The notes beneath the pieces were generated by a model, which was not told the DNA's origin, did not search any database, and was given only the letters and a program-made list of their open reading frames with translations. From IMG/VR virus record IMGVR_UViG_3300048091_000425: DNA of 64,000 nucleotides, one strand, 5' to 3'. Shown here in pieces: positions 4,311 to 33,107 of the stretch. This stretch comes from a virus. The stretch's first letter is position 1; each line of letters begins with the position of its first letter. The translations under genes were made by a program, and so were the position numbers.

Positions 4311-5873
4311 TTACAGCCCCAGATCTTGACTGAACTGTTGAGTCAAATCTTCGGGCGATAGCTGCTGCAAATACTTGCGGTCGACCAGGTCGTTGTTGAT
4401 CAGGGCGCGTAGGTACTGCGGGACGTTCTTAACCAATTGGACGACCTCGTCCTCTGGCGTCGTCTTGGTGAACAGCGTCGCAGCCGCCTCCATTGACTGG
4501 GTTCGATAAGTGCCATCGATAAATCGCGGGCCATCGTAGGTGTTATTACCTTTGACGAACAAGGAATAGTCACACGCCATCAAGATCAGCGCGTTCCTGA
4601 CGATTTGGGTGCTGGTCAGGGTTTCTGGATCAGGCACGTCCTTCCCTGAAAAGTAGAACCGTGAGTACATTATCGTGGCTTGAGCCTCTAAACCCTCCTC
4701 GATGATCAGCTTACCTTTCTCAAAATGCTCACTCAGTTGTGGGAGTTCCTTTGCGAGCATCAGTTGCCCGGCCAGCTGGTTGTAATCCATGCCGCACAAA
4801 AGGTTGAAGGTCATCCCTGCCTTTTCCATCTGAGGCACCGCCATCAGCTTGGAAATGTGCATTGCACCTCGGCAATGATCCTTCATCAGACTTTTAATAT
4901 AAGGATCAGCGAGAAGACGGGCATTGAATCGCTGAAGCCGGCCAAGAAACACGTTGTCTCTCATGAGGAAGCCATTACACCCGTCCAGATCCAGCCACTT
5001 TCGATTGAGGTAGGCGTCCAGGAAATCGGTATTCACCAGGCGGCGTAATGCCTGATCACTAAGCGTCTCCAGATGATCAAAGACAGTCGCAGGGACATAG
5101 GAGAAGGCTGGTCTTAACCCATATGCGTCGAACTTATCCAAACCGGCGTCAAACTTGGCGATCAGCGACGACATAAATTGTGGGAGGATCACAGGAAGAC
5201 GACCGATCTCGTCGGCTGAAATAACGTCCAACATGGCCGCTAGATCATCAAAATCAAGTTCGGCGAGCGCACGCAAATGCATCTCTGCTGAACTTGAATC
5301 ATCAGTTCCTGTTGCGTTTTCGGCATGAACGTGAAACCGGCACAGTGCCGCGTTGCCCACCGACTTTTCACGCAGTGTCGCCGGGTCGCAAAACATTATC
5401 GATAGCTTGAGATTTTTGGTGAAGAAGTCAATTCGATCCTTGGAAGAAGCGGCATCGTGTCCTTTGAGATGACGCTCGCTGTAGACCTCCATCATCGAGT
5501 TAATCGAGAAATCCACACCCAGCGGCCCAGCCAGGCTCTTGAGTAGATCAAAGTGACCGGTATCCAAATAGGGGCCGGGATGGCTGAAGAACCGGTCACG
5601 CAGCTGGAGGGCCACGTCCAAGCTCTCGGTAAAGCCCGGCAAGGCCAACAGGCCACGATCCACGGCAAAGGCCAGTAGTACGCCGGAGAGTTCCTCTACT
5701 GAGAGGTCAAACAGCGTTCTGAGCGCAGCATGGCGGCTGCCAACCGGAATCTGATCAAAGAGTGCCTCCAGGCCTTCACCGTCTTTCACAAGGCAGTGAC
5801 GGGCCTCATGGGCCACCACGGCAAGCACCTCGGCGGGGCTCAGCGCTGCGAAATCGATTCTGTTCATGATCAC
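4311..5873 (-). CDS. DLGL-tail protein, paralog group A
   Basis: 520-aa ORF ending QQFSQDLGL*; N-terminal region alignable by eye to the two adjacent ORFs; start overlaps upstream stop. Confidence 0.85.
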   Translation of the reverse strand: MIMNRIDFAALSPAEVLAVVAHEARHCLVKDGEGLEALFDQIPVGSRHAALRTLFDLSVEELSGVLLAFAVDRGLLALPGFTESLDVALQLRDRFFSHPGPYLDTGHFDLLKSLAGPLGVDFSINSMMEVYSERHLKGHDAASSKDRIDFFTKNLKLSIMFCDPATLREKSVGNAALCRFHVHAENATGTDDSSSAEMHLRALAELDFDDLAAMLDVISADEIGRLPVILPQFMSSLIAKFDAGLDKFDAYGLRPAFSYVPATVFDHLETLSDQALRRLVNTDFLDAYLNRKWLDLDGCNGFLMRDNVFLGRLQRFNARLLADPYIKSLMKDHCRGAMHISKLMAVPQMEKAGMTFNLLCGMDYNQLAGQLMLAKELPQLSEHFEKGKLIIEEGLEAQATIMYSRFYFSGKDVPDPETLTSTQIVRNALILMACDYSLFVKGNNTYDGPRFIDGTYRTQSMEAAATLFTKTTPEDEVVQLVKNVPQYLRALINNDLVDRKYLQQLSPEDLTQQFSQDLGL

Positions 5874-7492
5874 AGCCCCAAATCCTTACCGAATTCTTGA
5901 CCCAGCATCGGCAGCGGCAGCTTGGCCATATGCTCTTTCTTCAAGACAGCCTCGTTGATCAGATACCTGAGGAGGTCAGGTCGTTTGCCCACCGCTTCCA
6001 GCAGATCATCTTCACTCAGCGAGCGGGTGATCACCTTCAGCGTCCCAGGGACACCCAAACTGCGGCCTGGCAGATGGTTGTGGCAGAAGAAAAGAACCGG
6101 GGTTATCGCCTTCATCTTTGACTGATGCCAGTCGTCTTCATGGATGGCGCTTTCACAGGCCAGCCTGGCCGCCATGTGATTCACCTTGAAGTCATCTGTC
6201 ACCTTGTCAGGCGCTTTCATGTATTTCTTATCGGCCTGCTCATAAAACTCGTCGTACAGCTTCACCAAAGCAGGCTTCACACCTTCTTTCAGAAGCTCCA
6301 CCCCATGCTCCCGATAGCTGGCCAACAGGGGGTAATCGGCGGCGAATTTAACCAGGGCAGCGAAGCGATCTGTCTGCTGGGCATTGTTATGGACGCTGAG
6401 GGTAACGCCCTGTTCTTTCAGCCGGGAGCTCAACATCAGGGTCACCATGCCTTGGCAGCCAGGTGCGGCGATACCTTGGTGATTGGTGATGTATTTGACG
6501 ACAAACCTATCGCTCAGGATTCTCTCGTTAAAGCTGTCGACCAGGGCCAGGTAAACCGGGTCATCATAGTCATGGCCGTTTTTGGCTAACGGAACCATCC
6601 AGTTCGAAGTCAGATACTGATCCATAAAGCGGCCCCTAACCTGTTTGAAGAAGCTTTCATCTGGTAAGGCCATCAGCTCGCTCAACACGGTGGCTGGGCG
6701 AACCTTGAGCACCGCTGTAATGAATCTGAGGGATTCTTGCTTGAACGGCAGGTTCACGACTGTTTTTATCGCAGCGTCCAAGTGAGGGTTTAGAGGCTCA
6801 AGACCTGGATGAAAACCGCGCCCCAACATGAGGGTCATGGAGCCAACATCATTGATATTGAAGGTAGAGACAGTCTTCAACAACTCAAACTCAGAAGTTT
6901 TATCAATCCCCAAACTGCTGATTGTCTCGGCGAATCGGTAAGCCACCTGGTTCCCGACCTCAGGATCATCCACAGTATCCTGAGCGCAGAACAAGCGTAG
7001 GTACTCAAGGCTGGTAACGGCACCGGTCAGCATGGCATCGCTTCCCTTATCAATCTTGAACCCTATGCTTTTGTCACCGGCGTCATAGCTGTTGAAGATC
7101 GTGTCGACGCTGTCCATGGTGTAGGCCTTGCCATGGTGAGCTGCCGCTTTTCTCAGAATCTTGATGTGCCCAAGAGATGATAATGCCCCTTTCTGGTTAT
7201 CAAACACGCGGCGGCGGATGCGATCAGCGACTTCCAGGTCTTGGTAAAGATCCGGATAGAGCTCATCGATCCCCTTACCCTGCACGTAGTCCAGGATGTT
7301 GGCGCTGAAGAAATGGATCGCACGAGCATAAGCGTGGAGCAACGCCTGACCCTTCAGTGCCTCAGGGAAGGTGGCAAGGAGCATATCCACTTCGATAGGG
7401 TCGGCACCTTTGACCTTCATGCGGTACAGCGCTTTATGGAAGGCCTCGAAATGCTCGTAGGCTTTGAGTTCTGGTAGTTCGAAAATGGACAT
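5870..7492 (-). CDS. DLGL-tail protein, paralog group A
   Basis: Starts MSIFELPEL (GAGGGG RBS); ends QEFGKDLGL*; paralog of 7562-9193. Confidence 0.85.
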   Translation of the reverse strand: MSIFELPELKAYEHFEAFHKALYRMKVKGADPIEVDMLLATFPEALKGQALLHAYARAIHFFSANILDYVQGKGIDELYPDLYQDLEVADRIRRRVFDNQKGALSSLGHIKILRKAAAHHGKAYTMDSVDTIFNSYDAGDKSIGFKIDKGSDAMLTGAVTSLEYLRLFCAQDTVDDPEVGNQVAYRFAETISSLGIDKTSEFELLKTVSTFNINDVGSMTLMLGRGFHPGLEPLNPHLDAAIKTVVNLPFKQESLRFITAVLKVRPATVLSELMALPDESFFKQVRGRFMDQYLTSNWMVPLAKNGHDYDDPVYLALVDSFNERILSDRFVVKYITNHQGIAAPGCQGMVTLMLSSRLKEQGVTLSVHNNAQQTDRFAALVKFAADYPLLASYREHGVELLKEGVKPALVKLYDEFYEQADKKYMKAPDKVTDDFKVNHMAARLACESAIHEDDWHQSKMKAITPVLFFCHNHLPGRSLGVPGTLKVITRSLSEDDLLEAVGKRPDLLRYLINEAVLKKEHMAKLPLPMLGQEFGKDLGL

Positions 7493-7561
7493 GCTGACCC
7501 CTCTTTTCAACAGTCTACGGGGTGCAGATGGTGCATCACAATGTTGGCGCTGCGCCTTGGA

Positions 7562-9193
7562 TCATAAGCCCAAGTCCTTGCCGAAGAACTCCCCCTGCTC
7601 TTTCAGGGGCAGCCGGGCGAGGTGCTTGCGGTCGAGAATCTCGAGCTGGATCAGCCGCCTGAAGTAGCTCTGGTTCTTGCCGATGGCATCGAGGATCTCG
7701 TCTTCGCTTAACGACCTGGCAACCTCTATGACGACGCCTTTGGAAAAGGCCGTTCGCTTCTTGAAAGCCGAGTTGTCCCGATTATCCATGCCGTGCAACA
7801 CGGGGGTATCGCGTTTCTTGTCAGCTTCGTTGCTCACGCTGACCCCCATTTCACAGGCCAGCCGTACCGCCATGTACTTGTACTTGTAGTCGTCTGAGAC
7901 CTCAGACCCCTGGCGCAAGCCTTTGACTTTCGCCGTCGAAAAGGAATGCAGGTAGAGCCGGGTGAACTCCTTCTCGAAACACTCTTTGAGGTAATCCAGT
8001 CCTGCCTGCCGGTACGATGCCAAGCCAGGAAATTTCCCGGCGTGGGCCACCAAGGCGGCAAAGTTTTCTGCTCGCGGGTGGTGTTCAGGTTTGTCGATTG
8101 GTAAATAAATCCCCATGCTGACCATCCTGGGAAGCATTATCAGCGTTTCCAGTCCGTTGCACTCAGGCTCTTGAAATGCTGGGTGCCGTTCCAGGCGACT
8201 GGCGATCAAAGGGTCAGCAACCAGGCGTTCGCAGATCCGCTCAAGCTGATCAATGAAAGCCTGATCGTTGTAGTCACACATGGCCGTATTCTCGGGCTTC
8301 AGCCAACCTCCACCCAGGAATTGGTCAAGCAGTGGGCCGCGCATGGTCTTTTGAAAGCGCTGGTCATCCAGATTGGCCAGCCGTTGCACCATCGTTTGAG
8401 GGATAAGTTGAAAAGCCCACCCGAGAAACTCGATTCGCTGAAGTGAATAGTGCTCCAGCGCATCTGGTAAGCACCGCGCAAACTGAGCTTGAAAATGCGG
8501 CGCGCTTTTATGGAAGTCAGCTTTCAAAATGGCGGTAAGTGCCGAGGTGTCACTGATGGTGAACCCGCAGACAACCTCCGTAAGCGCCTCAAGTGTGGGC
8601 ATCGTCGGCCCGCTCTTCGCCACGAGTATTCCCTCCTTTCGGATGAACTCGGCGAGGCGGTAGGCAACACGGTCTCCCACCTCCACATCAGCCTTGATAT
8701 CGGTCGGGAAAAGATCCATCAGAAGCTGAAGATTCTTGAGGAAATAGGCCAGGGTTACCTTGGTTCCGGTTTTCATGCCACCGGACTGCAAGTTCTCTGG
8801 ACTGAACAGCGTATCAATGCAATTGAGAACATAGTCAACACCATGGTGAGCAATGGTGTTGCGAAACAACTCGTGATGGCCCGTGGACTTGTCGGTGGAC
8901 TCGCGAAACAAGCTATTACGGATGCGATCTGCCAATTCCAAGTCATGGTGCAACGCCGGGTACAGCTGATCAATCCCCTTAGCGAGGGTGAAGGTCAGCA
9001 GCGGTTCATTGAGGAAGTTGGCAGACAGCTCGTAGGCATACAAAAGCGCCGGGCCACGGAGATCTGCCGGGAAGGCTTCATAGGCCATTTCTAATCGGGT
9101 CGGATCTGTATCTGCACGGAATTGGATGCAGAGCATGTTGAAGCTACTGAAATGCTCTGAATCTCTGAGTGCTTCGTCGTCGAAAATTGACAT
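7562..9193 (-). CDS. DLGL-tail protein, paralog group A
   Basis: Starts MSIFDDEAL by analogy to its paralog; ends EFFGKDLGL*; shared blocks such as KGIDxLYPxLxxDLExADRIR. Confidence 0.85.
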   Translation of the reverse strand: MSIFDDEALRDSEHFSSFNMLCIQFRADTDPTRLEMAYEAFPADLRGPALLYAYELSANFLNEPLLTFTLAKGIDQLYPALHHDLELADRIRNSLFRESTDKSTGHHELFRNTIAHHGVDYVLNCIDTLFSPENLQSGGMKTGTKVTLAYFLKNLQLLMDLFPTDIKADVEVGDRVAYRLAEFIRKEGILVAKSGPTMPTLEALTEVVCGFTISDTSALTAILKADFHKSAPHFQAQFARCLPDALEHYSLQRIEFLGWAFQLIPQTMVQRLANLDDQRFQKTMRGPLLDQFLGGGWLKPENTAMCDYNDQAFIDQLERICERLVADPLIASRLERHPAFQEPECNGLETLIMLPRMVSMGIYLPIDKPEHHPRAENFAALVAHAGKFPGLASYRQAGLDYLKECFEKEFTRLYLHSFSTAKVKGLRQGSEVSDDYKYKYMAVRLACEMGVSVSNEADKKRDTPVLHGMDNRDNSAFKKRTAFSKGVVIEVARSLSEDEILDAIGKNQSYFRRLIQLEILDRKHLARLPLKEQGEFFGKDLGL

Positions 9194-9333
9194 GTGTACC
9201 CCGGCTATTTTCAACCAGTGTACGTGGCGCAGCTTCTCGCTCACAACGGCGCCGGCCTGCCCTTCCCGACGACATTGATGCTAATCGTTGGGCGAGTTAC
9301 CCTCTTGGCCTGGTACCCATTGGCGAGAGCGGC

Positions 9334-10622: not shown

Positions 10623-10754
10623 AGCCAATCGCCTGATCCAAAAGGGATTTTTGCCATCAATTGTCAAGCCTTCCAATTGATTTTTTTAACAATTGACGCA
10701 ATCATGGGGCATATGAATTTTTGCTGACCTTATGGGTTGGCCCAAAGGCCTCAC

Positions 10755-12737
10755 ATGCTCAAGAACAACCAAGTGCTGATGCAGCTGAAAGCCGGTTTTA
10801 CCGCGACCGTCAGCTCCACCTCCAGCGTTAGTCAAAGTGCCCCAACACTGGTCACAGGCATCGTGCGCGGCACCCGCAAGGACTATGGTTTCCTCAAATG
10901 TGCCGACGGCACCGACCACTTCCTGCCACCACCACAGATGAGCCGTTGCTTTCATGGCGATGTCGTGGAAGCCGAGATCATTGATAATCACAGCGGCGAC
11001 GGCAAGACCGAGGCCTGCATTCTGCGCATCGTTGAGTCCTCGATCTCTGGCTTCGTCGGCGTCGTGCGCAACAAGGGCCACAACCCCTACATCCAGCCGG
11101 AGAACCCCAACCTCAAACGGGACTTTCTGATCCCGCGCATTAAGCGTGGCAGAGAGCGTGAAGGCGACTTCGTCTGGGCCCGCGTGATCAAGCACCCGTT
11201 TGAGGATGGTGGCTGCCACGCTGAAGTAGAAGCCGTCATTTGCAGTGATCGTGATCGCCAGGCACCTTGGAAAGTGGCCAGTGCCCGCAACGGCCTCAAG
11301 CACGAAGCACCGCCCTTCGATCACGACGAGATCCAGGCCCTTAATCTGACGGACGACGTTACGGGTGACGAGAGCTTTGACTGGCGCCATGAATGCCTGG
11401 TGACCATCGACGGCGAGAACAGTCGCGACCTCGACGACGCCGTCATGGCCAAGCGTTCCGGTACCGACATTCTGCTGACGGTGGCCATTGCCGACCCTGC
11501 CCGCTTTCTGATTGAAGACGGCATCATGGATCGGGAAGCACGCTTGCGCTGCTTTACCACCTACTACCCAGGCATGAGCCTGCCGATGCTGTCGAAGGTG
11601 ATTTCCGAACAGGGCGCCTCGCTCGTCGCCGGCGAAGACCGTTCAAGCGTCTGCTGCAACATGATCATCAATGAAGCGGGCGAGATCACCGACTCGTACT
11701 TCTTCCTGGCCACCATCAACTCCAAGGCCAAGCTGTCCTATGAAGCCGTACAGGCGTTCCTGGACGGCGACCGCAGCGCTTGCCCTAATCATGTAGCGGA
11801 TGTGCTGGAATGCCTCAATGAGGTCGGCCTACGCCGCAGGAACTGGCGTAACAGCCACGCCCTGGCCTCCAGCCGTTATAAGGACTACACCTTCGTGGTA
11901 GAAGACTTTGCGCTGAAGTCCGTGCGCCCGTCCGTCCAGCTCCAATCCAACCGCCTGGTTGAAGAGTGCATGATCGCGGCCAACTTCAGTTTCGCTCAGT
12001 ACATGAAGCTCCACGGCATGCCGTGCGTTTACCGCCGCCACGACGGCTTCAAGCCAGAACGGCTGGAAGAGCTGGTGCTATTGCTGGCTGAGCATGGGGT
12101 TACCACGACCGCCGAGAACCTGGTGGGATTCGAGGGTTACCGCGAAGTCATGAGGACGGTGCTGGCGCTGGAAAACCCGGCGCTGGAGCAGCTGCTGATC
12201 GGCTTCTACGCCAAAAGCCGGCACTCCACCGAGTTCGGGCCGCACTACTCCCTCGGTCTTGATGGATATGCGACCTTCACCTCGCCGATCCGCAAGTACA
12301 GTGACCTGATGAACCACCGGTCGCTGAAAGCCCTGTTGCGCAATCAAGCCACCACCGTACAGACGTTCACGCCTGAGATGATGGAATTACTGGATGAAAA
12401 GTTCTCGGCCACCGACCGGGCTGCACGTGATGTGCAGAATGACCTCTACATCCAGCTGTACCAGGGCAAGATCGGCGAGCAATTCGACGCGGTGGTGACC
12501 GGGGTGATGCCGGCTGGCGTGAAAGCTGAGATCATTGAAACCGGCGCCCCGGTATTTCTCTCGACCCGCACGCTGGGACGCAAGTATGACGTCTTTGAGG
12601 TCAGTCAGGATGGCATGAGCCTGCTCAAGAAGGGCCACCCCATTGCCAAGATTGGTCAGGAGCTCAAGATCATCATCAACCTGATCGACATTCCTGGCCG
12701 CTCCATCAACGCCACCCTGCCGGCTGCCGAAGCTTAA
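10755..12737 (+). CDS. rnb: exoribonuclease II (RNB family 3'-5' exoribonuclease)
   Basis: N-terminal MLKNNQVLMQLK and GIVRGTRKDYGFL cold-shock domain; catalytic TIDGENSRDLDDA; YATFTSPIRKYSDLMNHR RNB signature; C-terminal S1-like domain; about 660 aa. Confidence 0.9.
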   Translation: MLKNNQVLMQLKAGFTATVSSTSSVSQSAPTLVTGIVRGTRKDYGFLKCADGTDHFLPPPQMSRCFHGDVVEAEIIDNHSGDGKTEACILRIVESSISGFVGVVRNKGHNPYIQPENPNLKRDFLIPRIKRGREREGDFVWARVIKHPFEDGGCHAEVEAVICSDRDRQAPWKVASARNGLKHEAPPFDHDEIQALNLTDDVTGDESFDWRHECLVTIDGENSRDLDDAVMAKRSGTDILLTVAIADPARFLIEDGIMDREARLRCFTTYYPGMSLPMLSKVISEQGASLVAGEDRSSVCCNMIINEAGEITDSYFFLATINSKAKLSYEAVQAFLDGDRSACPNHVADVLECLNEVGLRRRNWRNSHALASSRYKDYTFVVEDFALKSVRPSVQLQSNRLVEECMIAANFSFAQYMKLHGMPCVYRRHDGFKPERLEELVLLLAEHGVTTTAENLVGFEGYREVMRTVLALENPALEQLLIGFYAKSRHSTEFGPHYSLGLDGYATFTSPIRKYSDLMNHRSLKALLRNQATTVQTFTPEMMELLDEKFSATDRAARDVQNDLYIQLYQGKIGEQFDAVVTGVMPAGVKAEIIETGAPVFLSTRTLGRKYDVFEVSQDGMSLLKKGHPIAKIGQELKIIINLIDIPGRSINATLPAAEA

Positions 12738-14084: not shown

Positions 14085-15560
14085 TCAAAGGCCGAGGTCT
14101 TGGCCGAACAGCTCCCCTCTCACCACCAAGCTTTTGACCATCTGCAGGTACTGGGTGTCATTCGTCACCTTGTACAAGAATGACAGCACCTTGTCCTCTG
14201 GGTCGTGCTCTTCGGCCCAGGCCCTGATCTTGTGTTTCGGCTGGCAGAACAACACTGCCAGCAGGTTTGGGGATGTTGAGCACTGCTCAGGGGTGTAAAG
14301 CTTGGCAATCCATTCGAGCAGACCATCCTCGGGGGTCTCCATGATCGCCGCGTGGCTCTCGGTACCTCGCTCACACAGGCACGCCGTAGCCATCTGCTTC
14401 ACTGGGCAGACAGTGTCTTCCAACTCCATGAACACGACCAGGATATTGCGGGTGACATCGACAAGCTCTAGTCCAGATTCACGTGTTAGTTTCTTGGCCG
14501 ACGCTTGCCCACTAGTGATGAATTGTTTGGAACACGACGCCAGCGCACGGAGCGCACTTTGGTAAGCCGGGCTGTTCACCACATCCCTCTGTAGCGCAGC
14601 GTTCTTAACCCACTCAGCTGATTGTTGAAAGCAGTCCTGCACCGCTGATTGCCAGGCTTGAGCATTGCCGTGCGCATATTCATACAGATCCAGCACCTGT
14701 CCCTTTTCGAACGGGTGTTCAGACTTCAGCAGACTTTCAAAGCGCTTGTGAATCTCCTGGCGCTCCGGAAAAGGACTTAAGCCTATGGCGCTGCGATAGG
14801 CCCTGGCGTCCTGGAGTCCCATTGCCTCTACATGCTGATTCGCAGCGAGAACTGGTGGGCTGGCGCGCAAATACTCCGCAAACACCGCATCATCTTCCTG
14901 GCCAAGTACCACGGCCTGGATCACAGGAGTCTGATAGTTCTTAAAGGCACCGAGGATCAATTCTTGCAGATGTTTCCCCATGAGCTTAGTGAAAAAACCA
15001 AGCGACCTGACTTTCCCGCTGGGGCTGGTCAGTGAAACCACCTGCTCAGATTCTGATTTGGTACTGTGGAGTCTGTAGAAGGCAGTCCCAAACGCTTGCT
15101 CTGAATTGATCGCCTGCATCATCACATCGCCCCTCAGAAAAGCCTGCTTCATGCCTTCCAGGAGCTCATCCAGGCGCTCGTGCTCTTGACTGATGGCGAA
15201 ACCAACGTGGCGACCAAAAGCCTTTGTGTGGAGCTGTAATGGCGTGCAGCCCCAGTACAGAACTGATCGTGGCACCGGGTAAGGCTCGCTAAGCGCCACG
15301 GCGAGGCTAATGCTGTGATCGATATACGCATCAAGGCTCGGGAAGCTCAGCGCGTGTAACACCACCTTCCGGGACAGATCTATTTGCGTGAGTGCCAGTG
15401 GGCCATAAGCCAAATCATCCACGGGCAGTGGCATGTGCTGCTCAGGATGGAACGCAAGTCCGTTGAGCGAATCGTCCACTGAAATGATGTAATTGTCTTT
15501 GCTGACCGGGTAGCCGTCCATCCCCTCGTGGCCATGTGGAATCCTGCTGGCGTTGGTCAT
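14085..15560 (-). CDS. DLGL-tail protein
   Basis: 491 aa ending ELFGQDLGL*; only the last about 40 aa resemble the neighbours. Confidence 0.85.
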   Translation of the reverse strand: MTNASRIPHGHEGMDGYPVSKDNYIISVDDSLNGLAFHPEQHMPLPVDDLAYGPLALTQIDLSRKVVLHALSFPSLDAYIDHSISLAVALSEPYPVPRSVLYWGCTPLQLHTKAFGRHVGFAISQEHERLDELLEGMKQAFLRGDVMMQAINSEQAFGTAFYRLHSTKSESEQVVSLTSPSGKVRSLGFFTKLMGKHLQELILGAFKNYQTPVIQAVVLGQEDDAVFAEYLRASPPVLAANQHVEAMGLQDARAYRSAIGLSPFPERQEIHKRFESLLKSEHPFEKGQVLDLYEYAHGNAQAWQSAVQDCFQQSAEWVKNAALQRDVVNSPAYQSALRALASCSKQFITSGQASAKKLTRESGLELVDVTRNILVVFMELEDTVCPVKQMATACLCERGTESHAAIMETPEDGLLEWIAKLYTPEQCSTSPNLLAVLFCQPKHKIRAWAEEHDPEDKVLSFLYKVTNDTQYLQMVKSLVVRGELFGQDLGL

Positions 15561-15577: not shown

Positions 15578-16759
15578 TCAAATGCCCAGATCTTTGGAAA
15601 ACGCCTTGCCTCGCTCTTTTACGCTCATCGCGTGAACATAGCGCGGTTCCCCGGTCGCCTCATGCAGGGATCGCAACAGCTTCTCTTTTTGCGGGTGCGC
15701 GAGCACTGCCTCGAGCGGTGCCGTCGACAATAACGGCAAATAGCCTGGTCTGGAAAGCTTGCTGGCGCAAACCGCAACCATGGCCGGGTAATCGCGTGGG
15801 CCGTCACGCCGATCAAGGTAGCCAAGCCGGCCATAGTGCCCCGCCAGGAATCCCTCGTAGCAATCAATGCCAGCCTTGATCATCCGCATGATCAGCAGAT
15901 TCGCGTTTATGAATTCGGCGTTCCCAAGCTTCATCACCTGCTCGATAAACTCCACCGGCGCTCGCTGGATCAGATTGACGTCGAAAAACTGCTCAAGAAA
16001 CCCCAGCCTCTGCGCTGTGGTGTACGGGACATATCCCAGAAACTTCCCGTCGACCTCATGACTATAGCTATCGACGTTGATGAAACTGGCCAACAGCGTC
16101 TGCCAATAGCCATCGAGTGAGGTGCTGGTCGTCGGCGGCTGGGCATGGTTCTCAGCGTTGTATTGCGCCGCCACTCGGTCGACCTTCACACCTTCCGCAC
16201 TCAACTTTGAAATACAGTTGATGACCCATGCTGGCGTGAGATGGCTGTCCGCCCCCTTTAGGGAACACAGCCACTGGGCCGCCTCCAGATCATCATGTTG
16301 GAGTGCAGACTTGCAGAACTCGCGGGCGTACAGTGGCTTCTTGACCAGCTCACCAACCGCTTGAGGTGATCGAAAACCGCCGTCACCGCCGCGACACAGC
16401 TGAGCTTTCATGTACACGTGCTTAGGAGTGAGCATCGACGTGATTTTCAATGCAGCTTTATGCTTGATCAGGTAATCGAACGCCAGATCTGTCCCGTGCG
16501 GGTCAGCCAGGCCAAAAATCACAGCAGCTTGCAGGCAGCCCAGATGCCCATGCCAGGACTTGGCGCCATTCTTCAGGTGCTCGTCTTTCAGCACGTCCAG
16601 CAACCACAGAACATCCTTCGCGCCATAACCCGCAGTGTCGAGCACGAGCATGGCCCTGAAACAAAGTTCAGCCTTGGCCACCCAGGTGTAGGGGTTAGCG
16701 TCGTAAGCACTGCCTAAGGCCCCGCTGAGAATCGCTTTAGCCCTGTTGAAGTCGGTCAT
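15578..16759 (-). CDS. DLGL-tail protein, paralog group B
   Basis: ATG 16759 overlaps upstream TGA with an AGGAG RBS; ends KAFSKDLGI*; paralog of 16756-17958. Confidence 0.85.
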   Translation of the reverse strand: MTDFNRAKAILSGALGSAYDANPYTWVAKAELCFRAMLVLDTAGYGAKDVLWLLDVLKDEHLKNGAKSWHGHLGCLQAAVIFGLADPHGTDLAFDYLIKHKAALKITSMLTPKHVYMKAQLCRGGDGGFRSPQAVGELVKKPLYAREFCKSALQHDDLEAAQWLCSLKGADSHLTPAWVINCISKLSAEGVKVDRVAAQYNAENHAQPPTTSTSLDGYWQTLLASFINVDSYSHEVDGKFLGYVPYTTAQRLGFLEQFFDVNLIQRAPVEFIEQVMKLGNAEFINANLLIMRMIKAGIDCYEGFLAGHYGRLGYLDRRDGPRDYPAMVAVCASKLSRPGYLPLLSTAPLEAVLAHPQKEKLLRSLHEATGEPRYVHAMSVKERGKAFSKDLGI

Positions 16760-17958
16760 AGCCCAATATCTCCTGAAAATGCCTTGGCCCGCCCAATGAG
16801 GCTCATGTGTCGAACACACTCCGTATCCTCAGACAGCTTGTAAACCAGATCCAGGAGCAGATCCTTTTCCTTGTGGCCGGCGATGATCTCGGGCGCCAGC
16901 GTGGCCAGAATGCCGAGGTAGCCACGCCTGTGCTTGTTGGAATAGCAGATGTTCACGATCTCAGGTTCCGTCAGGCAGAAGTCGGGATGCTCAAGCATGT
17001 AGAAGCGCCCATGGTTTGCCATCAAAAAACCCCTTGCCGTAGGCAGCCCTGCCCTGTGCATCCCATAGATAAAAGCGTTGACCGGGTCTTTCTCGAAATT
17101 GGAGGTCGTCATCAGCAGGTGCACGAACTCATCCGGGGCTTTGCGCAGCATCTGCACGTTGAAAATCGCGTCCAGAGTTTGCTGGGGCTGTCGATTTTTA
17201 CCCTGTAACAAAGGACTGTCGACCACCAACTTGGCATAGTCCTCAAGGCTCATTCTGGTAATGGCGTTGATCAGCGTTAGGTCTTCGGTGCGATGCCCAT
17301 CACTGATCAGTCGGTTGTTCACCACCTTGACGTGATCGGCGAGGAAGGCTTGCGGTAGGTGCTTGGCCATTTGGGGTATGGAAAGCAGATGCTGCACAGC
17401 CTGCAGGTCATCAGCAGCCATAGCAGAATCGCAGAACATCCTCGCAATGGTCTGGTTGCGAGGGAATAGCAAAAATGCCTCTGGCTCTCTCAGCACACCG
17501 ACGCTGTACCTGCAGAGATTGAGTTTACGCTGATTTCTCAGGCTGTCCTTGTGACCAAACCCGTACAACATTCCCTTGAAATTGACGGATGAGTTTTTGC
17601 CGCGCATCAGCAGGTCGAACACTGCGTCGACAAAACTCGGGTTGATCAGCATTTGATTGAGTATGACCGATACGCCCCAACCCCAATCTGGCTCTTTATT
17701 TATGTCGGTGAAGATCATGGGGCTTAATGGTTTGGCTTTCTCTTTGAAGCTTTCAATCAACCCCAAAGGTAGCCCCAGGGCATAGGCGCGTTGAAAAAAG
17801 AACGTTACGTCGTCAAAACTTGAGTTTAAATTGGCCAACATCGTCAGCAGTGGAAATGCCTTCTTACGCTCGCGGCGATAGTAGATCTCGAAGATCAGAT
17901 CTTGGATATGAAGCCCCGTGGTTTCTTCAACCAATGCGCAGAAATCGGCATTTTCCAC
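16756..17958 (-). CDS. DLGL-tail protein, paralog group B
   Basis: 400 aa ending KAFSGDIGL*; shares FCxSAxxxDDLxAxQxL and GFLxxxxGR blocks with the neighbour. Confidence 0.85.
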   Translation of the reverse strand: MENADFCALVEETTGLHIQDLIFEIYYRRERKKAFPLLTMLANLNSSFDDVTFFFQRAYALGLPLGLIESFKEKAKPLSPMIFTDINKEPDWGWGVSVILNQMLINPSFVDAVFDLLMRGKNSSVNFKGMLYGFGHKDSLRNQRKLNLCRYSVGVLREPEAFLLFPRNQTIARMFCDSAMAADDLQAVQHLLSIPQMAKHLPQAFLADHVKVVNNRLISDGHRTEDLTLINAITRMSLEDYAKLVVDSPLLQGKNRQPQQTLDAIFNVQMLRKAPDEFVHLLMTTSNFEKDPVNAFIYGMHRAGLPTARGFLMANHGRFYMLEHPDFCLTEPEIVNICYSNKHRRGYLGILATLAPEIIAGHKEKDLLLDLVYKLSEDTECVRHMSLIGRAKAFSGDIGL

Positions 17959-19803: not shown

Positions 19804-20697
19804 TCAGTAGGTCGCTACGGGCTCTGCTCGGCGGCGCTCAGCAGTCAGCCGGGCAATCACTTCCTGAGTGGATTCACCAGGGCGAGCCGCCGCCATGATT
19901 TCCTTCTCGGTGATTGGCCCGCTCTTGCGCTTGCGTGGGGTCTTCGCCGGCTTTGGCGTCTCATCCTTCTCGGAGATCAAGCTTTCCTGAACCGGGTTCA
20001 TCGAGAAGTCCGCACGCTCGGCGTAGGAGACCTCAATGGCCACGATTTTGCGCCCTTCGCGCTTTGGCTGGAAACCCAGGATCTTGATGTCGGTGAGGTT
20101 GTGGATCATCTCCAGCGCCGGCTCAATCACGCGCTTTCTCAAGTCGGCGTAGAGCGGGTAGGCATCATCGAGGGCCAGACTGAAGCGAATGTCCTCAATG
20201 AATATCAACGCCGTTGGACTGCACTTGAACCGGTGCTTAACGATCAGCTCATACATGCGGAAGGCATGCGGGCTGGAGAGTCGGGCCACCGCGTTGAGGC
20301 TGTACTTCGTGAAGTTGCCTTGGAGGTCGACCAGATAGGGCAGGATATCCTTTGAGAAACGCAGCATCACCCGCCCTTCCCCGGCGATGTAGTCGGCGGT
20401 TTGTATCCAGCGGGTTTTACGCTCCCGGTCATTCATGCTGAGCAGGATCTTTCGGTCGAACAGCTGGTCAACAGCTTCCTTCAGGTCAGAGTAGGCGGCC
20501 ATCAGGCTGATACCACAGGTCTCTGCGAACTCACGGGCGGTGAAACCATACATCTCATCATCCGAAACCAGGGTGTTGCGGTCACGGTCGATTTTGGCGA
20601 TGCAGGTGAGAATGATTCGTGTCTCAGCCACCGTCAGTTTGTAGTTCGCAGTCATCAAATCGTTTGATTTGTAGACCTGAAGGTTTTGCGCGGTCAT
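19804..20697 (-). CDS. repB: plasmid replication initiator, Rep_3 (RepA/RepB) family
   Basis: VYKSNDLMTANYKLTVAETRIIL, RWIQTADY..GEG.V.LRFS..ILPYL..L...FTKY and YADLRKRVIEPA are Rep_3 hallmarks; flanked by iterons. Confidence 0.92.
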   Translation of the reverse strand: MTAQNLQVYKSNDLMTANYKLTVAETRIILTCIAKIDRDRNTLVSDDEMYGFTAREFAETCGISLMAAYSDLKEAVDQLFDRKILLSMNDRERKTRWIQTADYIAGEGRVMLRFSKDILPYLVDLQGNFTKYSLNAVARLSSPHAFRMYELIVKHRFKCSPTALIFIEDIRFSLALDDAYPLYADLRKRVIEPALEMIHNLTDIKILGFQPKREGRKIVAIEVSYAERADFSMNPVQESLISEKDETPKPAKTPRKRKSGPITEKEIMAAARPGESTQEVIARLTAERRRAEPVATY

Positions 20698-25368: not shown

Positions 25369-26535
25369 ATGAACAAGCCACTCCCGACACTAAGCCCCTA
25401 CCGCCTTCGCGCCATCACCAATGAGTTCCGTGGACGCAAGCACTGGGAGGAAGGCTGGCACGGAGGAAAGCCTGACACCTACAACGACAAGGTGGCCGTG
25501 CTCGAGGCGATAGAGCCTGCGGTTTTGAACAAACTGCTGCAGATTTTGCAGCTGCATGTCGGCGGTGAGACCGTCCGCAACCTTGCACACCTGGATAAGC
25601 TTCTGGATGTTGTGGCAAAGGAGAATGAAGGCGGTTTCGAAGCAGGCTTGCCGAAACCTCACTTACGCGTCTACAGCCTGTGCTTCGCCGGCGTGCATTC
25701 TCACGTTTATTGGCCCAGGCTGATAACTCTGATCCAAGGCGCAAGCCAGGAACATGAACAGCAGATTCGTGGGTTTTTCGGCACGGTGATGGACATCGAT
25801 CTCGACGAGCTACTGAGCAAAGGACAGTTGCCTTTCGAAATGCCTGAGCAGCTGCGCCATATCCTGCCCCGTCAAGCATTCTCCGGCATTGATTACATTC
25901 TCGACCCCCAATCCGGATCCTGGTTACGTGAGGATCGCTTTTCTTCTACCTACGAGCTTCAGTTTACTTGCGAGGAGTTCGATGACGCTGCAGATCGAAG
26001 GCTAAATTGCAAATACACCATTGCTCACGCCGGTACGCTTGAGGAGGCGCTTGCGCTGGCCAGCTTGCATCTAAAGAGCATAAATCCCTATTTTTCTTCG
26101 ATTACAGACATGCGAGAGGCGCAGGAAACCCTGAGTACTCCAGTCAGATATGAGATCTTCAGGGGGCCTTTCGAATTGGTCGTGCAGAGCAAGATCACAG
26201 AGTGTTTTACCGATGCGGATGAGCACACCCCAGACCCTGCTCTGAGGAAAATGATTCGTTACGACAACACCTGGAACCGGCGACCTTGCGCCGTCGAAGT
26301 TCAAAGGCTCCAGCAACAAAACCAGACACTCCAGGAGCGATTGAGAGCCTCCATCAAAGCACGCGACACCGAATATAGCTTTCATCACCAAATTGAGGCC
26401 AACGAAGACCGTATTAAGCAGTACGACTTCTGTGTGCCGAACGCGGTGCTTGAGAAAATGATTTTCGACACCGATCAACGCCTGGGCAACATGCACCACC
26501 TGGCCAGATATTTTAGCCAAGACCTCGGACTTTAA
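25369..26535 (+). CDS. DLGL-tail protein, unrelated body
   Basis: 388 aa ending RYFSQDLGL*; body not alignable by eye to groups A or B. Confidence 0.85.
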   Translation: MNKPLPTLSPYRLRAITNEFRGRKHWEEGWHGGKPDTYNDKVAVLEAIEPAVLNKLLQILQLHVGGETVRNLAHLDKLLDVVAKENEGGFEAGLPKPHLRVYSLCFAGVHSHVYWPRLITLIQGASQEHEQQIRGFFGTVMDIDLDELLSKGQLPFEMPEQLRHILPRQAFSGIDYILDPQSGSWLREDRFSSTYELQFTCEEFDDAADRRLNCKYTIAHAGTLEEALALASLHLKSINPYFSSITDMREAQETLSTPVRYEIFRGPFELVVQSKITECFTDADEHTPDPALRKMIRYDNTWNRRPCAVEVQRLQQQNQTLQERLRASIKARDTEYSFHHQIEANEDRIKQYDFCVPNAVLEKMIFDTDQRLGNMHHLARYFSQDLGL

Positions 26536-28031: not shown

Positions 28032-28036
28032 AACCT

Positions 28037-28590: not shown

Positions 28591-29253
28591 ATGTTTTTGC
28601 TCTATTCGACCGCGCTGCTGCTCGTCGTCACCGCCCTCTGCGTGCCTCACCTGGTGCGGCCTTTATTTGCAGCGGTGTACAGCCAGGCGCTGGATAAGGC
28701 CTATCTGCTAAAAGCCTATTGGCCTAAAGATCCAGAGCCTGAGAACTATCATTTAAAACGCCTCAAACAACACCGGAACCGCCTATCCATACGCGCTGAC
28801 GCCCAGATCTGCAGTATGGGCATCAATGCAGATTTGTACCGGCCCAACGAGATCTGCGGGCTCCAGGAGGCGCTGCACAAGCTCCAGCACTGTGACGGCG
28901 TGGTGTTGTTTGAAAACGGAAGGATGATCTTTCCAGACGGCCAGACCTTGGACATTCATTCACTGACAAAGAAAATCCATCACCAACTGGTCAATGCTTA
29001 CGTTGGGCTGGATGAAGCGGCCTCGATTATCACGGACTACGCCGATGACTTGGGCAACGAGGCGCTGGCGGCCAGCACCAACAAGACCCTATACAGTATC
29101 AGTGGCCAGACGGCGAAGTATCCACTGGACGGGGTGATTGGGCCGCTGGCGCTGCTACTCGGCGTAGATCCGGACAAGAATGACTTAGCCGCCCACGGCG
29201 GTGATGCGCTCTGGAGCAGAAACAAAGCTCGGTTGTTTGGCACCAAAAAATAG
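28591..29253 (+). CDS. hypothetical protein with N-terminal TM anchor
   Basis: 220 aa; hydrophobic N-terminus. Confidence 0.7.
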   Translation: MFLLYSTALLLVVTALCVPHLVRPLFAAVYSQALDKAYLLKAYWPKDPEPENYHLKRLKQHRNRLSIRADAQICSMGINADLYRPNEICGLQEALHKLQHCDGVVLFENGRMIFPDGQTLDIHSLTKKIHHQLVNAYVGLDEAASIITDYADDLGNEALAASTNKTLYSISGQTAKYPLDGVIGPLALLLGVDPDKNDLAAHGGDALWSRNKARLFGTKK

Positions 29254-29324
29254 CGCTCTGTGCTCTTGAGGCCGTGCGCCGCAGGTGCACTGCCGTCGCT
29301 TGCTTTGCCCTCCCCCCAAAAGCT

Positions 29325-29579
29325 TTAAGCCTTGGATTCCGCAAGCTCCAAATCTTTCCACTGGGGCTCAAAAATCTTTTCTTCCTTGTATCGCCCCATT
29401 TTTGGGAACACCACGGTAGGTTGTTTAACGTGGCCTGGAAATTCACGCTGGCCACGATACCCGGTGATTTCCCCGACCCGGCCTTTGTATTTCCTGATCT
29501 GTTTTTCTCCCCCACGAACAAGGTAGCGCTCAGTGAACTGAACCTTCGTGCCTACGGGGAGAGCTTCTGTGACTTCCAT
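29325..29579 (-). CDS. small basic hypothetical protein (SH3/KOW-like pattern)
   Basis: GAGG RBS; LPVGTKVQF...YKGRVGEITGY. Confidence 0.65.
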   Translation of the reverse strand: MEVTEALPVGTKVQFTERYLVRGGEKQIRKYKGRVGEITGYRGQREFPGHVKQPTVVFPKMGRYKEEKIFEPQWKDLELAESKA

Positions 29580-29659
29580 GAATGCACCTCTGCGATACGT
29601 CCCACCAAGATACATTCCTAGAATCATACGTGCAAGGGGGTTACACCCCCTCAGCTGGA

Positions 29660-30226
29660 TCAGAACAGGTTGTTCTGTAGCGGCTCTTCACGCTCTGCCT
29701 TAAGCGATACCTCAAGCGCTCGCTGAATGCTCTCGGAGTGTTGCATGTCGGCGAACGGGTTGACCTTCTGACGGATCTGCTCGAAGTGCGCCAGTATCCA
29801 CGCGGAGTCTTTCGGCTGGACGACACAAGGTTTTCCGCCGAAATTCTGGACGTAGTAGTGCTCAAGCGGCAGCTTGGACTCTTCAAGGGCCTCCTTCAGC
29901 TCAGGATGACTGGCCAGCTTGGCGTCGTTCGCCTGGCAGATCAGCTCCTGGAAGCGTTCAGGGTGCCACTTCCTGACCGTTGGAAGGTCACGGCCAAGTC
30001 TCTTGGCTTCGTACCCATGCGCATGGCGCAGCTCCTCAGCCTGGCGAGTCAGCCAATACCAGTAACCCTCTACAGAGGCGAACCGGCCATGCTCTACGTG
30101 GCAGAAAGGCTTGTGGGCGAAGTGCGACAGATCCTTGCCCAGGTCGGTCTTGCCCTTGCTGTAGATGTTGAGGTGGGTGACCCCATCCTCCTCAGGCTTG
30201 AATTCCTTTTTCTGCGTCATGGCCAC
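29660..30226 (-). CDS. NADAR-like protein (T4 gp30.3-like)
   Basis: LSHFA..PF....G.F.SVEG..., G.EAK..GR and L.EAL..S...L.H blocks parallel gp30.3/YbiA as recalled; ends QNNLF. Confidence 0.6.
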   Translation of the reverse strand: MAMTQKKEFKPEEDGVTHLNIYSKGKTDLGKDLSHFAHKPFCHVEHGRFASVEGYWYWLTRQAEELRHAHGYEAKRLGRDLPTVRKWHPERFQELICQANDAKLASHPELKEALEESKLPLEHYYVQNFGGKPCVVQPKDSAWILAHFEQIRQKVNPFADMQHSESIQRALEVSLKAEREEPLQNNLF

Positions 30227-30383
30227 GTCCTCTCATTACATTCTGCATTTCTTCCAGCATACCAACGCCGTATCAATGGATTAAAGGCTTCATGAACAAT
30301 ATGCATTAATTGTCATTCCTTAAGGATCAATTGTATGATGTGGCCGATTTTATCCGTCCTATTGCTATGTAATTGAGGCCTCC

Positions 30384-31571
30384 ATGTTCAAGAAAGCCCT
30401 GCTACCCATGCTGATCGTTGCCGCCCTCTCGGGCTGCTACGACAAAAAAACCACGACCGTTGACGGCTCCAGCCAGGTAACGCTCACCGATTCCCTGGGC
30501 AAGATCACCGGCAGCCTGCCTGGCGACCAGCAGATGCAGTACGTCCAAGACGTCACCCTGCTGAAGAATACCTACCAGCTGGATCAACTGCAGATCGACC
30601 TGAACGGCAAGAACGCCCAGGAAATCATGGCTACCGCGCAACAACTGCGCGACAAGCTGATGCTCGATGAGCAGCAGAAGATCCAGGCTCAACTCCAGGA
30701 AGTCGCCGAGCAGTCCAAGCAGCGTGACCTGGCGTCCCTGCGTGCCGACATCGACACGCTCAAAGCCAAGCGTGATGCCGAGCTGACCAAGCTGCAATTC
30801 AAGATCGACAGCGTCGTCTTCGAACATTCGAAAAACAGCGTCACCGACGTCAACGACCCGGTCATCAACCTGCTGGTCACCAACAACACCAAGCTCAATG
30901 TCTTCGGCGCGTCGCTTGAAGGCGTTCTGACCGTTGCTGATCAGGCAGAGCCGCTGCACACCGGATTGCTGGATCTGCAACTGGAAAAGATCCTTCTGCC
31001 GGGCGAGTCGATCTCGACCTCCATCAAGCCGAGCATCATCAGTGACTGGCGTTCGGTCAAAGCCCCTGAAAATGCAGCGCTGGCGCTGACTGTCAAAGAC
31101 CTGCGTGACGAGAAAGGCGAAAGCCTGGTCGGCGGCCTGTCCTTTACCAAAGAAGACGGTGATCAGCTGACCGCTATGGCTCAGCAACTGCTGGCGCTGG
31201 ATCCGACGGCACAGACCGAAGCCGAAGCTCTGATCAACCCGGCACAGATCGCGCTGCCGCTGCCTGTGACCGCGCCAGAAGCCTCGTCTGATGCAGAACC
31301 GGCCCCAGTGGCCCCAACTGCTCCAGAAGCCGCTCAGCCGGACGTCAGCAACGCCATGCCCGTTCAATTGATGCCTGAATCGGAAGTCAGCCTGCCGAAA
31401 GAAGCTGAAGTGGCCCCGGCCCCAGCTCCTGAAGTAGCAGCTCCGGTCACCGCTGAACCTGTTGTAGAAGCGCCAGAAGCCACCCCGGCTGATGAAAACG
31501 CTCCTGACTTCACCCAGATCCAGGCTCCAACCGAAGCGCCTACTGCTGAAAACACCCCCGCGTCCAACTGA
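30384..31571 (+). CDS. lipoprotein with coiled-coil and Pro/Ala/Glu-rich tail
   Basis: MFKKALLPMLIVAALSGC lipobox; low-complexity C-terminus. Confidence 0.85.
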   Translation: MFKKALLPMLIVAALSGCYDKKTTTVDGSSQVTLTDSLGKITGSLPGDQQMQYVQDVTLLKNTYQLDQLQIDLNGKNAQEIMATAQQLRDKLMLDEQQKIQAQLQEVAEQSKQRDLASLRADIDTLKAKRDAELTKLQFKIDSVVFEHSKNSVTDVNDPVINLLVTNNTKLNVFGASLEGVLTVADQAEPLHTGLLDLQLEKILLPGESISTSIKPSIISDWRSVKAPENAALALTVKDLRDEKGESLVGGLSFTKEDGDQLTAMAQQLLALDPTAQTEAEALINPAQIALPLPVTAPEASSDAEPAPVAPTAPEAAQPDVSNAMPVQLMPESEVSLPKEAEVAPAPAPEVAAPVTAEPVVEAPEATPADENAPDFTQIQAPTEAPTAENTPASN

Positions 31572-31621
31572 TCCCTCCACTCAGTCGACAAGCGTCTAGT
31601 CCGGCGCTTGTTACTGAAGAC

Positions 31622-31652
31622 AAAAAGGCCGCATTCAGATGCGGCCTTTTTT
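31622..31652. terminator. bidirectional terminator
   Basis: AAAAAGGCCGCAT / ATGCGGCCTTTTTT between convergent genes. Confidence 0.85.
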
Positions 31653-31670
31653 CGTCCTGCAATTGTGCGA

Positions 31671-32234
31671 TCAGGCGGTTAGGCGTTCCTGGTGGAGAAG
31701 CCTGGATTTGCCAACCACTGCTTTCCACACGACCCGCCAGAACAGCAACTCCTCGTCAGTCACCTTGTAGACCTGGCTCTGCTCGACCACATCCATCAGG
31801 TTTTCCAGGATGAGGTAGGTTTTGAGCGCTTCTACATCCAGGGTCGCGCTGTAAAAGCTGCACATATCCAGGCCAGCGGCGAGGTCATCACTGCTCATCA
31901 CGCCCTTAGTGTGAAGGTCGCGCATGCCCAGTTCGGCCCGCTCAAAGAAGATTTCAGGATCTAGCTCTTGCGTGCCAAGGCTGGACTGGCAACGTGCGGC
32001 GACCAGCGCCCAGGACTTGCTGGACAGAAAACCCGGCACATCTGCACCCAGCTCGTCTGCCGAAAAGAACACCTGACGGACACCCTCGGGCTGACTGACA
32101 ACCAACAGCAGACCATCGCTGTCCAGTTGATACAGCAACCTGAGTTCCTGGGACGGCAGGCGCGGGTCGATCAGCTTGATCCGAAAAGCTTTGGATAAGG
32201 ACTGGCGACTGGTGTACGAAACGGAGCTGGACAT
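31671..32234 (-). CDS. hypothetical protein
   Basis: 187-aa ORF. Confidence 0.65.
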   Translation of the reverse strand: MSSSVSYTSRQSLSKAFRIKLIDPRLPSQELRLLYQLDSDGLLLVVSQPEGVRQVFFSADELGADVPGFLSSKSWALVAARCQSSLGTQELDPEIFFERAELGMRDLHTKGVMSSDDLAAGLDMCSFYSATLDVEALKTYLILENLMDVVEQSQVYKVTDEELLFWRVVWKAVVGKSRLLHQERLTA

Positions 32235-32273
32235 AAGGCTTCCCGCAAAACTTGGTCAATATTCCTTTTTTGT

Positions 32274-33107
32274 TTAAAGGCCTAAGCCCTGTTCTGGATA
32301 TTGCCAACTTCCTGGCTTCTTTCCAAGGCCCTTGCGCTCGACGGTCAGCTGCGCCTCCTTCATCAACTCATTGCCCATCTGCTCATGCAAGGCCAGCAAC
32401 AGCTCATTCTGGTGATTTTCATGCAGGCTGGACAGCAGATCCACGGCAAGAGCCACCTTACGGCTATGTGGCGCTTGGGCATACCGCGTCATGACGTCGA
32501 ACACGCCGGTGAGGCTGGACGCCGAGGTGAGTTTGGCCCCAAAAAAACGCAGATCTCTGTCCGCCGCAACACTGGTGGGGTTATTGAGCGGCAGCTGTGC
32601 CCCTTCCCGGCTAAGATAAAGCGCAGAAAAGGCTGCAATGAGGCCAGGGGTTGATTGGCTGTGGTACATCGTCAGTAGCTGACCCACCGTGAACTGCTTG
32701 CCAAAGACCTGCTCGGCCCTGATCAAGCTGTCGAATTCAAAGCTGACCTCGCTTGAATAAATGAACATAAATTGACCAATCAATTTAAGGCCCAGGTTGC
32801 CGAACTCAAGACCCATGGCTTGTGTGCACACCGAACTGCCCTGGAATGACTTTGCAAGGCACAGAAAGGCATAGGGCTCTAAATGATCCACCATGTCAGC
32901 ACACACAGGCTTGCGCATTAGCTCATCCTCCAGCACCGGGCTCACATAGTACCGATGAGCAAAGGCCGGCGAGCGCTCAATGCCTGGCCGCGTCATCAAC
33001 GCTTCAAGCGATTCCATTGCCAGCTCAGCATTACCCTGCCGGAGGTGCAAGCGGTAGGCGTTGAATAAATCTTCGGCTTCCGAGGATCCAACAAAGCTTT
33101 GCATCAT
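32274..33107 (-). CDS. hypothetical protein with degenerate xLGL tail
   Basis: 277 aa ending QYPEQGLGL*. Confidence 0.7.
   Translation of the reverse strand: MMQSFVGSSEAEDLFNAYRLHLRQGNAELAMESLEALMTRPGIERSPAFAHRYYVSPVLEDELMRKPVCADMVDHLEPYAFLCLAKSFQGSSVCTQAMGLEFGNLGLKLIGQFMFIYSSEVSFEFDSLIRAEQVFGKQFTVGQLLTMYHSQSTPGLIAAFSALYLSREGAQLPLNNPTSVAADRDLRFFGAKLTSASSLTGVFDVMTRYAQAPHSRKVALAVDLLSSLHENHQNELLLALHEQMGNELMKEAQLTVERKGLGKKPGSWQYPEQGLGL

Follow-up and report, generated by a model that had tools for sequence, protein, structure and literature searches.

How do seven large proteins, with bodies of at least three kinds, come to end in the same seven residues? This is the question raised by IMG/VR virus record IMGVR_UViG_3300048091_000425, a stretch of 64,000 nucleotides that we refer to as the window (64 kb), in which a first-pass annotation had noticed a terminal tag, F-[SG]-x-D-[LI]-G-[LI]-stop, and had taken it for a plasmid-specific export signal of a type IV secretion system. 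A six-frame scan of the window, which surveyed open reading frames (ORFs) of at least 60 amino acids (aa), recovers this ending on exactly seven ORFs, six on the minus strand and one on the plus strand, each with its stop codon immediately after the tag; no further ORF of that size in the window has it, and all seven ends and coordinates are borne out. The codons of the tag vary synonymously, as had been stated. Two sequences that had been offered as looser versions, PEQGLGL (32274) and DDEFGLRF (14043), lack the phenylalanine at position -6 and the aspartate at position -3 (the last residue being 0), lie off the family logo and are not members. We found no publication that mentions the terminal tag, and it appears to be an unpublished label of a family of Pseudomonas megaplasmids of ~1 Mb.

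Three of the tagged proteins stand in a row on the minus strand: protein A (4311..5873, 520 aa, ending FSQDLGL), protein B (5870..7510, 546 aa, FGKDLGL) and protein C (7562..9244, 560 aa, FGKDLGL) are paralogues with 22-33% identity in BLASTP, B and C sharing 33%. A second minus-strand cluster consists of protein D (14085..15560, 491 aa, FGQDLGL), which has a 58% identical orthologue on the P. silesiensis plasmid pPL1, protein E (15578..16819, 413 aa, FSKDLGI) and its paralogue protein F (16756..17958, 400 aa, FSGDIGL; 29% identity to E); D is linked to E and F weakly and through the tail only. Protein G (25369..26535, 388 aa, FSQDLGL), on the plus strand, has a body without relative in the window. 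The division into at least three body groups, made by eye in the first-pass annotation, thus agrees with BLASTP. No Pfam family was found for any of the seven, and protein C has only seven homologue clusters among 5.8 billion proteins. When the last 50-90 residues are aligned, a weak module of ~45 aa becomes visible, followed by the sharply conserved end. The AlphaFold2 model of protein C (mean predicted local distance difference test, pLDDT, 83.6; predicted template modelling score 0.75) is built of alpha-helical repeats throughout, and its last helix (residues 547-557), which is of moderate confidence (pLDDT about 74-86), carries the tag. A Foldseek search of the Protein Data Bank with this model returned nothing at E<=1e-3, and in a wide fold search the best Z score, 8.5, lies within helical-repeat noise and denotes generic helical-repeat similarity only. 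In the model of protein E (pLDDT 67) the last seven residues are coil (pLDDT about 50); this protein gave weak ankyrin-like feature matches in the ESM Atlas (0.89-0.91) and no structural match.

The window is part of a much larger replicon family, and it is at this scale that the tag can be recognized as a plasmid trait. Compared with pPL1 (1.17 Mb) it shows 78.5% nucleotide identity, with 66% of the query aligned, and its nearest genome (G001, with 65% of sampled k-mers common) carries a plasmid contig of 1,059,468 bp, here called C1, with 44 tRNAs and paralogues of SecA, FtsZ, ribonucleotide reductase and RecJ. Through C1 the window fits the family of pMPPla107 and pBASL58, replicons of ~0.9-1.2 Mb with many tRNAs, a majority of hypothetical genes and housekeeping paralogues, of which pMPPla107 reportedly transfers across Pseudomonas species. 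We searched for the tag with a degenerate DNA pattern encoding FxxD-hydrophobic-G-hydrophobic-stop, using the reversed pattern as a control. The G001 genome (7.6 Mb) contains 78 matches against 4 for the control; all 78 lie on C1 and none on the 6.5-Mb chromosome. At the protein level 86 of 1318 non-overlapping ORFs on C1 end in F..[DE][LIMV]G[LIMVF], where ~0.03 would be expected from residue frequencies, and about a dozen further ORFs end in F-x-x-D-L-[NS]-L. Internal copies of the motif number three in 319,547 aa.

Among 401 genomes of Pseudomonas species, only G001 and one other (G240) rise above background, and both carry such a megaplasmid; the remainder have at most 5 matches, equal to the control. 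Of these negative genomes three (G100, G151 and G371) are unpublished, and no other result depends on them. The contig of G240 (C2, 971,445 bp), which is 79% identical to pMPPla107 at the nucleotide level across dotM-dotL, has 152 of 1064 ORFs ending in [FMLI]xx[DE]-hydrophobic-G-hydrophobic, and one of its proteins, a counterpart of protein G with 22% identity, ends in LGVDLGL. A DNA pattern for DLGL-stop, again scored against its reversal, gave 154 matches on pMPPla107 (NZ_CP031226.1; control 6), 93 on pBASL58 (control 4) and 61 on pPL1 (control 5), as against 7 on a plasmid of Pseudomonas sp. FeN3W (control 9), 1 on a V. parahaemolyticus megaplasmid (control 5) and 2 on a V. vulnificus megaplasmid (control 8). 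The scan of whole replicon and relatives suggested in the first-pass annotation shows the tag to extend well outside the window and to exceed chance, and it is carried by 6-15% of all proteins per megaplasmid. A hidden Markov model of the tail, run against 1.84 billion representative proteins, made only three matches at E<=1e-3, each of them at the very C-terminus; the profile is too short to map the distribution.

The tag is not spelled in the same way on all of these plasmids. Its logo from the 86 tails of C1 reads L(-13)..[LR](-10)[GA](-9)xxF(-6)[SGA]xDLGL, in which the conserved L at -13, L/R at -10 and G/A at -9 confirm the extension of the tail to about 20 aa that had been noticed in the window, while on C2 it reads R(-10)D(-9)xx[FMLI](-6)[GAS]xDLGL. 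On the FeN3W plasmid the DLGL form is at background and a lineage variant is present instead: an end with hydrophobic residues at -6, -2 and 0 occurs on 91 of 777 ORFs of at least 120 aa (10 for a shifted control), with the logo P(-13), K(-10), [RK](-9), x, x, [ILV](-6), S(-5), x, [DE](-3), [LF](-2), x, [LI](0). There is thus one tag architecture with at least three lineage dialects, those of C1, C2 and FeN3W, and its general form is basic(-10/-9) x x hydrophobic(-6) small(-5) x acidic(-3) hydrophobic(-2) x hydrophobic(0)-COOH. This general pattern is not enriched in a Vibrio relative, of which the first 400 kb were scanned (5 matches, control 6). A second class of enriched C-termini, P-[AS]-P or PSL, was also seen on these plasmids (PAP 7, PSP 6 and PSL 4 on C1; PSP 4 and PAP 4 on C2; PSP 7 on the FeN3W plasmid) and may be a second tag.

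What kind of proteins carry the tag? BLAST sorts the 238 tagged proteins of C1 and C2 into 130 clusters, and when the 17 largest clusters were compared by hhalign with the last 30 residues removed, the probability was 11% or less for every pair. The bodies are, as far as such comparisons reach, unrelated, or their relatedness is beyond detection, and a single diverged paralogous family was rejected as their source on the same profile comparison. Tagged proteins are longer than other ORFs (median ~430 aa vs ~255 aa) and poorer in transmembrane-like segments (5-7% vs 23-26%) and in signal-peptide-like N-termini (1-2% vs 11-16%), and 99% of the 238 contain cysteine. A search of 82 of them against Pfam produced a single sub-threshold match (E 0.003), and neither NCBIfam nor PHROGs matched any of the 82, whereas 82 random untagged C1 ORFs of equal size yielded 91 Pfam families. 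They also change quickly: C1 and C2 share 306 reciprocal best hits with a median identity of 41%, a match of any kind on C2 exists for only 15 of the 86 proteins tagged on C1, and the tagged reciprocal-best pairs are ~25% identical against 42% for other pairs, with the xxDLGL end kept. C1, C2 and the FeN3W plasmid have a core of ~260 proteins in common. On each plasmid ~60 to 155 fast-evolving orphan proteins, predicted to be soluble and cytoplasmic, carry the tag. Many of the tagged genes are tandem paralogues, and upstream k-mer enrichment, in which a shared promoter was sought, returned nothing beyond the tag codons of the tandem gene before. Only the last ~14 residues are conserved, apart from the weaker module of ~45 aa, and between positions -30 and -8 lysine and arginine are enriched 1.6-fold and glutamate is depleted to 0.68-fold.

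From these observations we infer most firmly that strong selection acts on the tag as a peptide with a free C-terminus. With like firmness, its reader is probably encoded by the plasmid, because the tag is never found on chromosomes and differs between plasmid lineages. The absence of tagged genes from chromosomes and other replicons suggests that they are useless without a plasmid factor, and the lineage variants point to co-evolution with a plasmid-encoded reader rather than a conserved host one. The differences between plasmid lineages also speak against the alternatives of a degron or of a docking motif for a plasmid hub protein, on the model of the C-terminus of single-stranded DNA-binding protein, both named in the first-pass annotation.

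Which plasmid system might read such an address? All of the Pseudomonas plasmids that we examined for a type IVB secretion system (T4BSS) encode an I-type, Dot/Icm-like one, and pMPPla107 and pBASL58 are typed in PLSDB as having mating-pair formation system MPF_I. On C1 the genes lie in two places, both outside the region covered by the window. At 608-632 kb there are a PilQ-like ATPase, PilO, a secretin, TcpQ, DotB, DotC/TraI (PF16932), DotG (TrbI) and DotH (PF12293); a type IVb pilus is encoded together with Dot/Icm-like genes on this plasmid family. At 513-520 kb a conserved module comprises ParM, a small acidic ORF, DotM (PF23127, 1.7e-37), a DotL-like type IV coupling protein (T4CP) of 851 aa with an acidic C-terminal extension, and an ORF of 434-454 aa, with a SecA paralogue adjoining. 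DotM is 89% identical to that of pPL1, 53% to that of pMPPla107 and 52% to that of pBASL58, and its homologues form 39 clusters, many on contigs of ~0.4-1.28 Mb and from Pseudomonas where the source is named. The small acidic ORF beside dotM (160-196 aa, isoelectric point about 5) is conserved, and tblastn finds it in Pseudomonas only, though a Vibrio copy may be too diverged to be detected. The order ParM-hypothetical protein-DotM-DotL is conserved across the Pseudomonas plasmids and is also kept in the Vibrio megaplasmids.

The plasmid SecA (862 aa, with all four SecA domains) and FtsZ (450 aa) lie at 508643-512834 on C1 directly beside the dotL-dotM module, and this SecA is kept by every relative, Pseudomonas and Vibrio alike. 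The DotM homologues of the plasmid family have a conserved acidic C-terminal tail, ...DDW[AG]. NZ_CP031226.1, NZ_CP032678.1, NZ_CP143488.1 and CP136011.1 are all typed as 'non-mobilizable' by MOB-suite; pMPPla107 is nevertheless reported to conjugate at high levels under laboratory conditions (PMC6482414), from which it follows that the relaxase of the family goes unrecognised. Whether the type IV secretion system of pMPPla107 secretes effectors was left open in its description, in which no known effectors were found (PMC3136466).

We consider the best account of the tag, at somewhat less than an even chance, to be that it is a recruitment or translocation signal of the plasmid Dot/Icm-like T4BSS. 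It would act as a strictly terminal address read by a plasmid-encoded reader, which is plausibly the T4BSS coupling complex, that is the DotL T4CP with its acidic C-terminal extension together with DotM, and the small acidic ORF beside dotM may be part of this reader. The tagged proteins would then be exported as T4BSS substrates and delivered to recipient bacteria during mating or to other target cells. A more specific version, which we hold only tentatively, is that a rapidly diversifying orphan repertoire of 6-15% of the genes, selected by a near-deterministic heptapeptide that co-evolves with a plasmid-specific reader, is injected through the plasmid T4BSS into recipients at mating or into eukaryotic or competitor cells.

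The closest known parallel is the Dot/Icm system of Legionella and Coxiella, whose substrates have C-terminal signals read by DotM, which recognizes the E-block, and by adaptors on the DotL extension, namely IcmSW and LvgA (PMC7251119, PMC7280309); LvgA reads a helix containing F-x-x-x-L, with the motif FxxxLxxxK (PMC7251119). As with Dot/Icm effectors, a C-terminal signal is placed here on hundreds of diverse, fast-evolving, mostly orphan soluble proteins, with DotL, DotM and the core of a T4BSS encoded on the replicon that carries them. The F-x-x-x-L spacing and a hydrophobic residue near the end recur in the tag, and its conservation within the last ~14 residues fits the last 20-35 residues in which Dot/Icm signals lie. 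F(-6) and L(-2) also fit the spacing of the LvgA motif; the protein ends two residues on, however, and has no position for the lysine. The tag system differs further in residing on a conjugative-type megaplasmid of free-living or plant-associated Pseudomonas. Conjugation systems of the I-type (IncI; R64/ColIb-P9) transfer proteins such as the Sog primase; few of their substrates are known, and none of these is known to have a shared terminal motif. The plasmids studied here resemble them in the MPF_I machine, in the TrbA/DotM and TrbC/DotL homologues and in the type IVb thin pilus, as well as in that I-type systems move proteins to recipients, whereas here ~60-155 proteins per plasmid come under one tag. 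Substrates of type IVA systems (Agrobacterium VirE2 and VirF, Bartonella Beps, CagA) have C-terminal signals rich in arginine and lysine that are read by VirD4. A positively charged C-terminal tail region is common to both; type IVA signals are nonetheless charge patterns that are not known to have a fixed hydrophobic end, and VirD4/TraG (PF02534) has no match in the nearest genome, G001.

Several observations weigh against a role of the tag in T4BSS recruitment. The Vibrio megaplasmids keep DotM, DotL and the same synteny and yet have no tag (in two whole records for the DLGL-stop pattern and in the first 400 kb of one for the general pattern), so the coupling module alone does not imply the tag; the co-occurrence with T4BSS genes that was proposed as a check holds on the Pseudomonas plasmids and breaks down on these relatives. 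The motif is a near-invariant terminal heptapeptide with basic, glutamate-depleted tails, in place of the loose, compositional, Glu-rich E-block signal of Dot/Icm substrates, in which acidic and small polar residues prevail. No IcmS, IcmW or LvgA was detected, although the IcmS search (PF12608, on the plasmids) had a control that matched nowhere either, and the small acidic ORF is an adaptor candidate only. The tag was not found on a recognisable relaxase or on any other known transferred protein, and for a conjugation system a cargo that takes up 6-15% of the genes is very large. Since all tag-positive plasmids belong to one family, their co-occurrence with a T4BSS amounts to one phylogenetic observation. 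Searches of the plasmids for a reader or an export route (VirD4, IcmS, DnaN, encapsulin, ABC exporter and PDZ_2) were negative throughout. A complex prediction with DotM residues 120-455 (37-row alignment) and a 40-aa tail (86 rows) scored 0.01, which speaks neither for nor against binding. The export tag of the first-pass annotation has thus stood as regards its confinement to the plasmid, the unrelated bodies and the presence of a Dot/Icm-like system, and has not as regards the features of Dot/Icm signals, IcmS and the tag-free Vibrio plasmids.

The same facts leave some room for a reader of another kind. It is rather unlikely that the tag docks proteins on some other plasmid-encoded machine or hub, for instance a dedicated chaperone or unfoldase, a structure that serves partition or as a scaffold, or a compartment peculiar to the plasmid. 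Such a hub would account equally well for the plasmid restriction and the lineage-specific variants, DotM and DotL are present in tag-free relatives, and the plasmids carry their own SecA, FtsZ and ParM, with the first two adjoining dotL. No candidate for it has been found, however: SecA and the 454-aa neighbour of dotL were tried as tag-specific reader genes and rejected, as both are also present on the tag-free Vibrio plasmids. The encapsulin shell model PF04454, which covers family 1 only (other shell families were not searched), is not found in G001, G240, FeN3W or pMPPla107. The L-G-L end would fit a class II PDZ ligand; the tagged proteins have no export signals, and there is no PDZ_2 domain on the four plasmids searched, other PDZ models not having been included. 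No beta-clamp or ABC exporter turned up on the plasmids either, and large, diverse orphan sets with a shared C-terminal signal are best known from the effector repertoires of type IV secretion systems.

A reader supplied by the host is improbable, whether a tail-recognising protease or adaptor that treats the tag as a degron, the host beta-clamp, or host type I secretion. An acidic-then-hydrophobic motif at the extreme C-terminus that needs a free end is in line with such readers, and the LGL end has a likeness to QLVLGL, the clamp motif of Pol IV, and to the D-hydrophobic motif of type I secretion. Metalloproteases secreted by type I systems have an extreme C-terminal acidic residue together with hydrophobic residues, as the tag has at its free end. 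Yet the tagged bodies are helical and cysteine-rich, none of the 238 contains RTX/GG repeats (GGxGxD), and an ABC (ATP-binding cassette) exporter (PF00664) is absent from the four tag-positive plasmids. The clamp motif (QL[SD]LF or QLxLxL) fares no better, for in the tag its Q1 and L2 positions are S, G or A and variable, and no DnaN was found on the plasmids. Moreover, no host chromosomal protein uses the tag, and it varies between plasmid lineages though host factors are conserved. Least probable in our estimate is that the tag has no addressing function, the last ~45 residues being a structural or oligomerisation module that is shuffled among proteins, or the remnant of an old paralogous superfamily. 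The terminal helix that carries the tag in the model of protein C, the many tandem paralogues and the alpha-helical nature of both modelled bodies agree with this; the coil at the end of protein E, the lack of homology between bodies in the profile comparison, and a tag that stays fixed while bodies drop to ~25% identity do not. Conservation concentrated in the last seven residues and bound to the free terminus, with the three internal copies as the only others, is likewise hard to reconcile with a module of this kind.

The remaining genes of interest in the window are a homologue of RNase II/R (RNB, OB and CSD2 domains; 10737-12737), which lies between both clusters of tagged genes, a Rep3 initiator (19804-20697), and a protein of 861 aa whose domains resemble DUF2201 metallopeptidases and VWA (33417-36002). 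On C1 the tRNA count is comparable to the 38 reported for pMPPla107, and tRNA clusters are found at 25-29 kb, 70-72 kb, 104-107 kb and 669 kb. A random sample of C1 ORFs included genes for flagella or type III export (FlhB/YscU family, FliM, flagellin and a FliI-like ATPase), a two-partner secretion porin of the ShlB/FhaC type and a methyl-accepting chemotaxis protein. At 215-225 kb C1 has a type I-F Csy1-4 set with no obvious cas1, cas2 or cas3 nearby, and a 595-aa HerA/TrwB-like ATPase and a 961-aa ORF lie within a few kb of the Csy genes.

Some 70% of the genes of these giant plasmids code for hypothetical proteins, and the tag lists ~60-155 candidate substrates per plasmid from sequence alone. 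Whether the Dot/Icm-like system of pMPPla107 serves conjugation only or also secretes effectors is a question that has stood since 2011 (PMC3136466), and the terminal tag makes it testable, since it supplies a peptide of 7-45 residues that can be used as a reporter fusion or as bait for the reader. Should its reader be of another kind, the tag would reveal a hitherto undescribed plasmid-encoded machine with about a hundred clients. As a T4BSS signal it would be much more readily recognised than that of Legionella and might serve as a portable delivery tag, and if the tagged proteins are indeed injected, T4BSS substrates would have their first strict sequence code, and no larger effector repertoire would be known from a plasmid.

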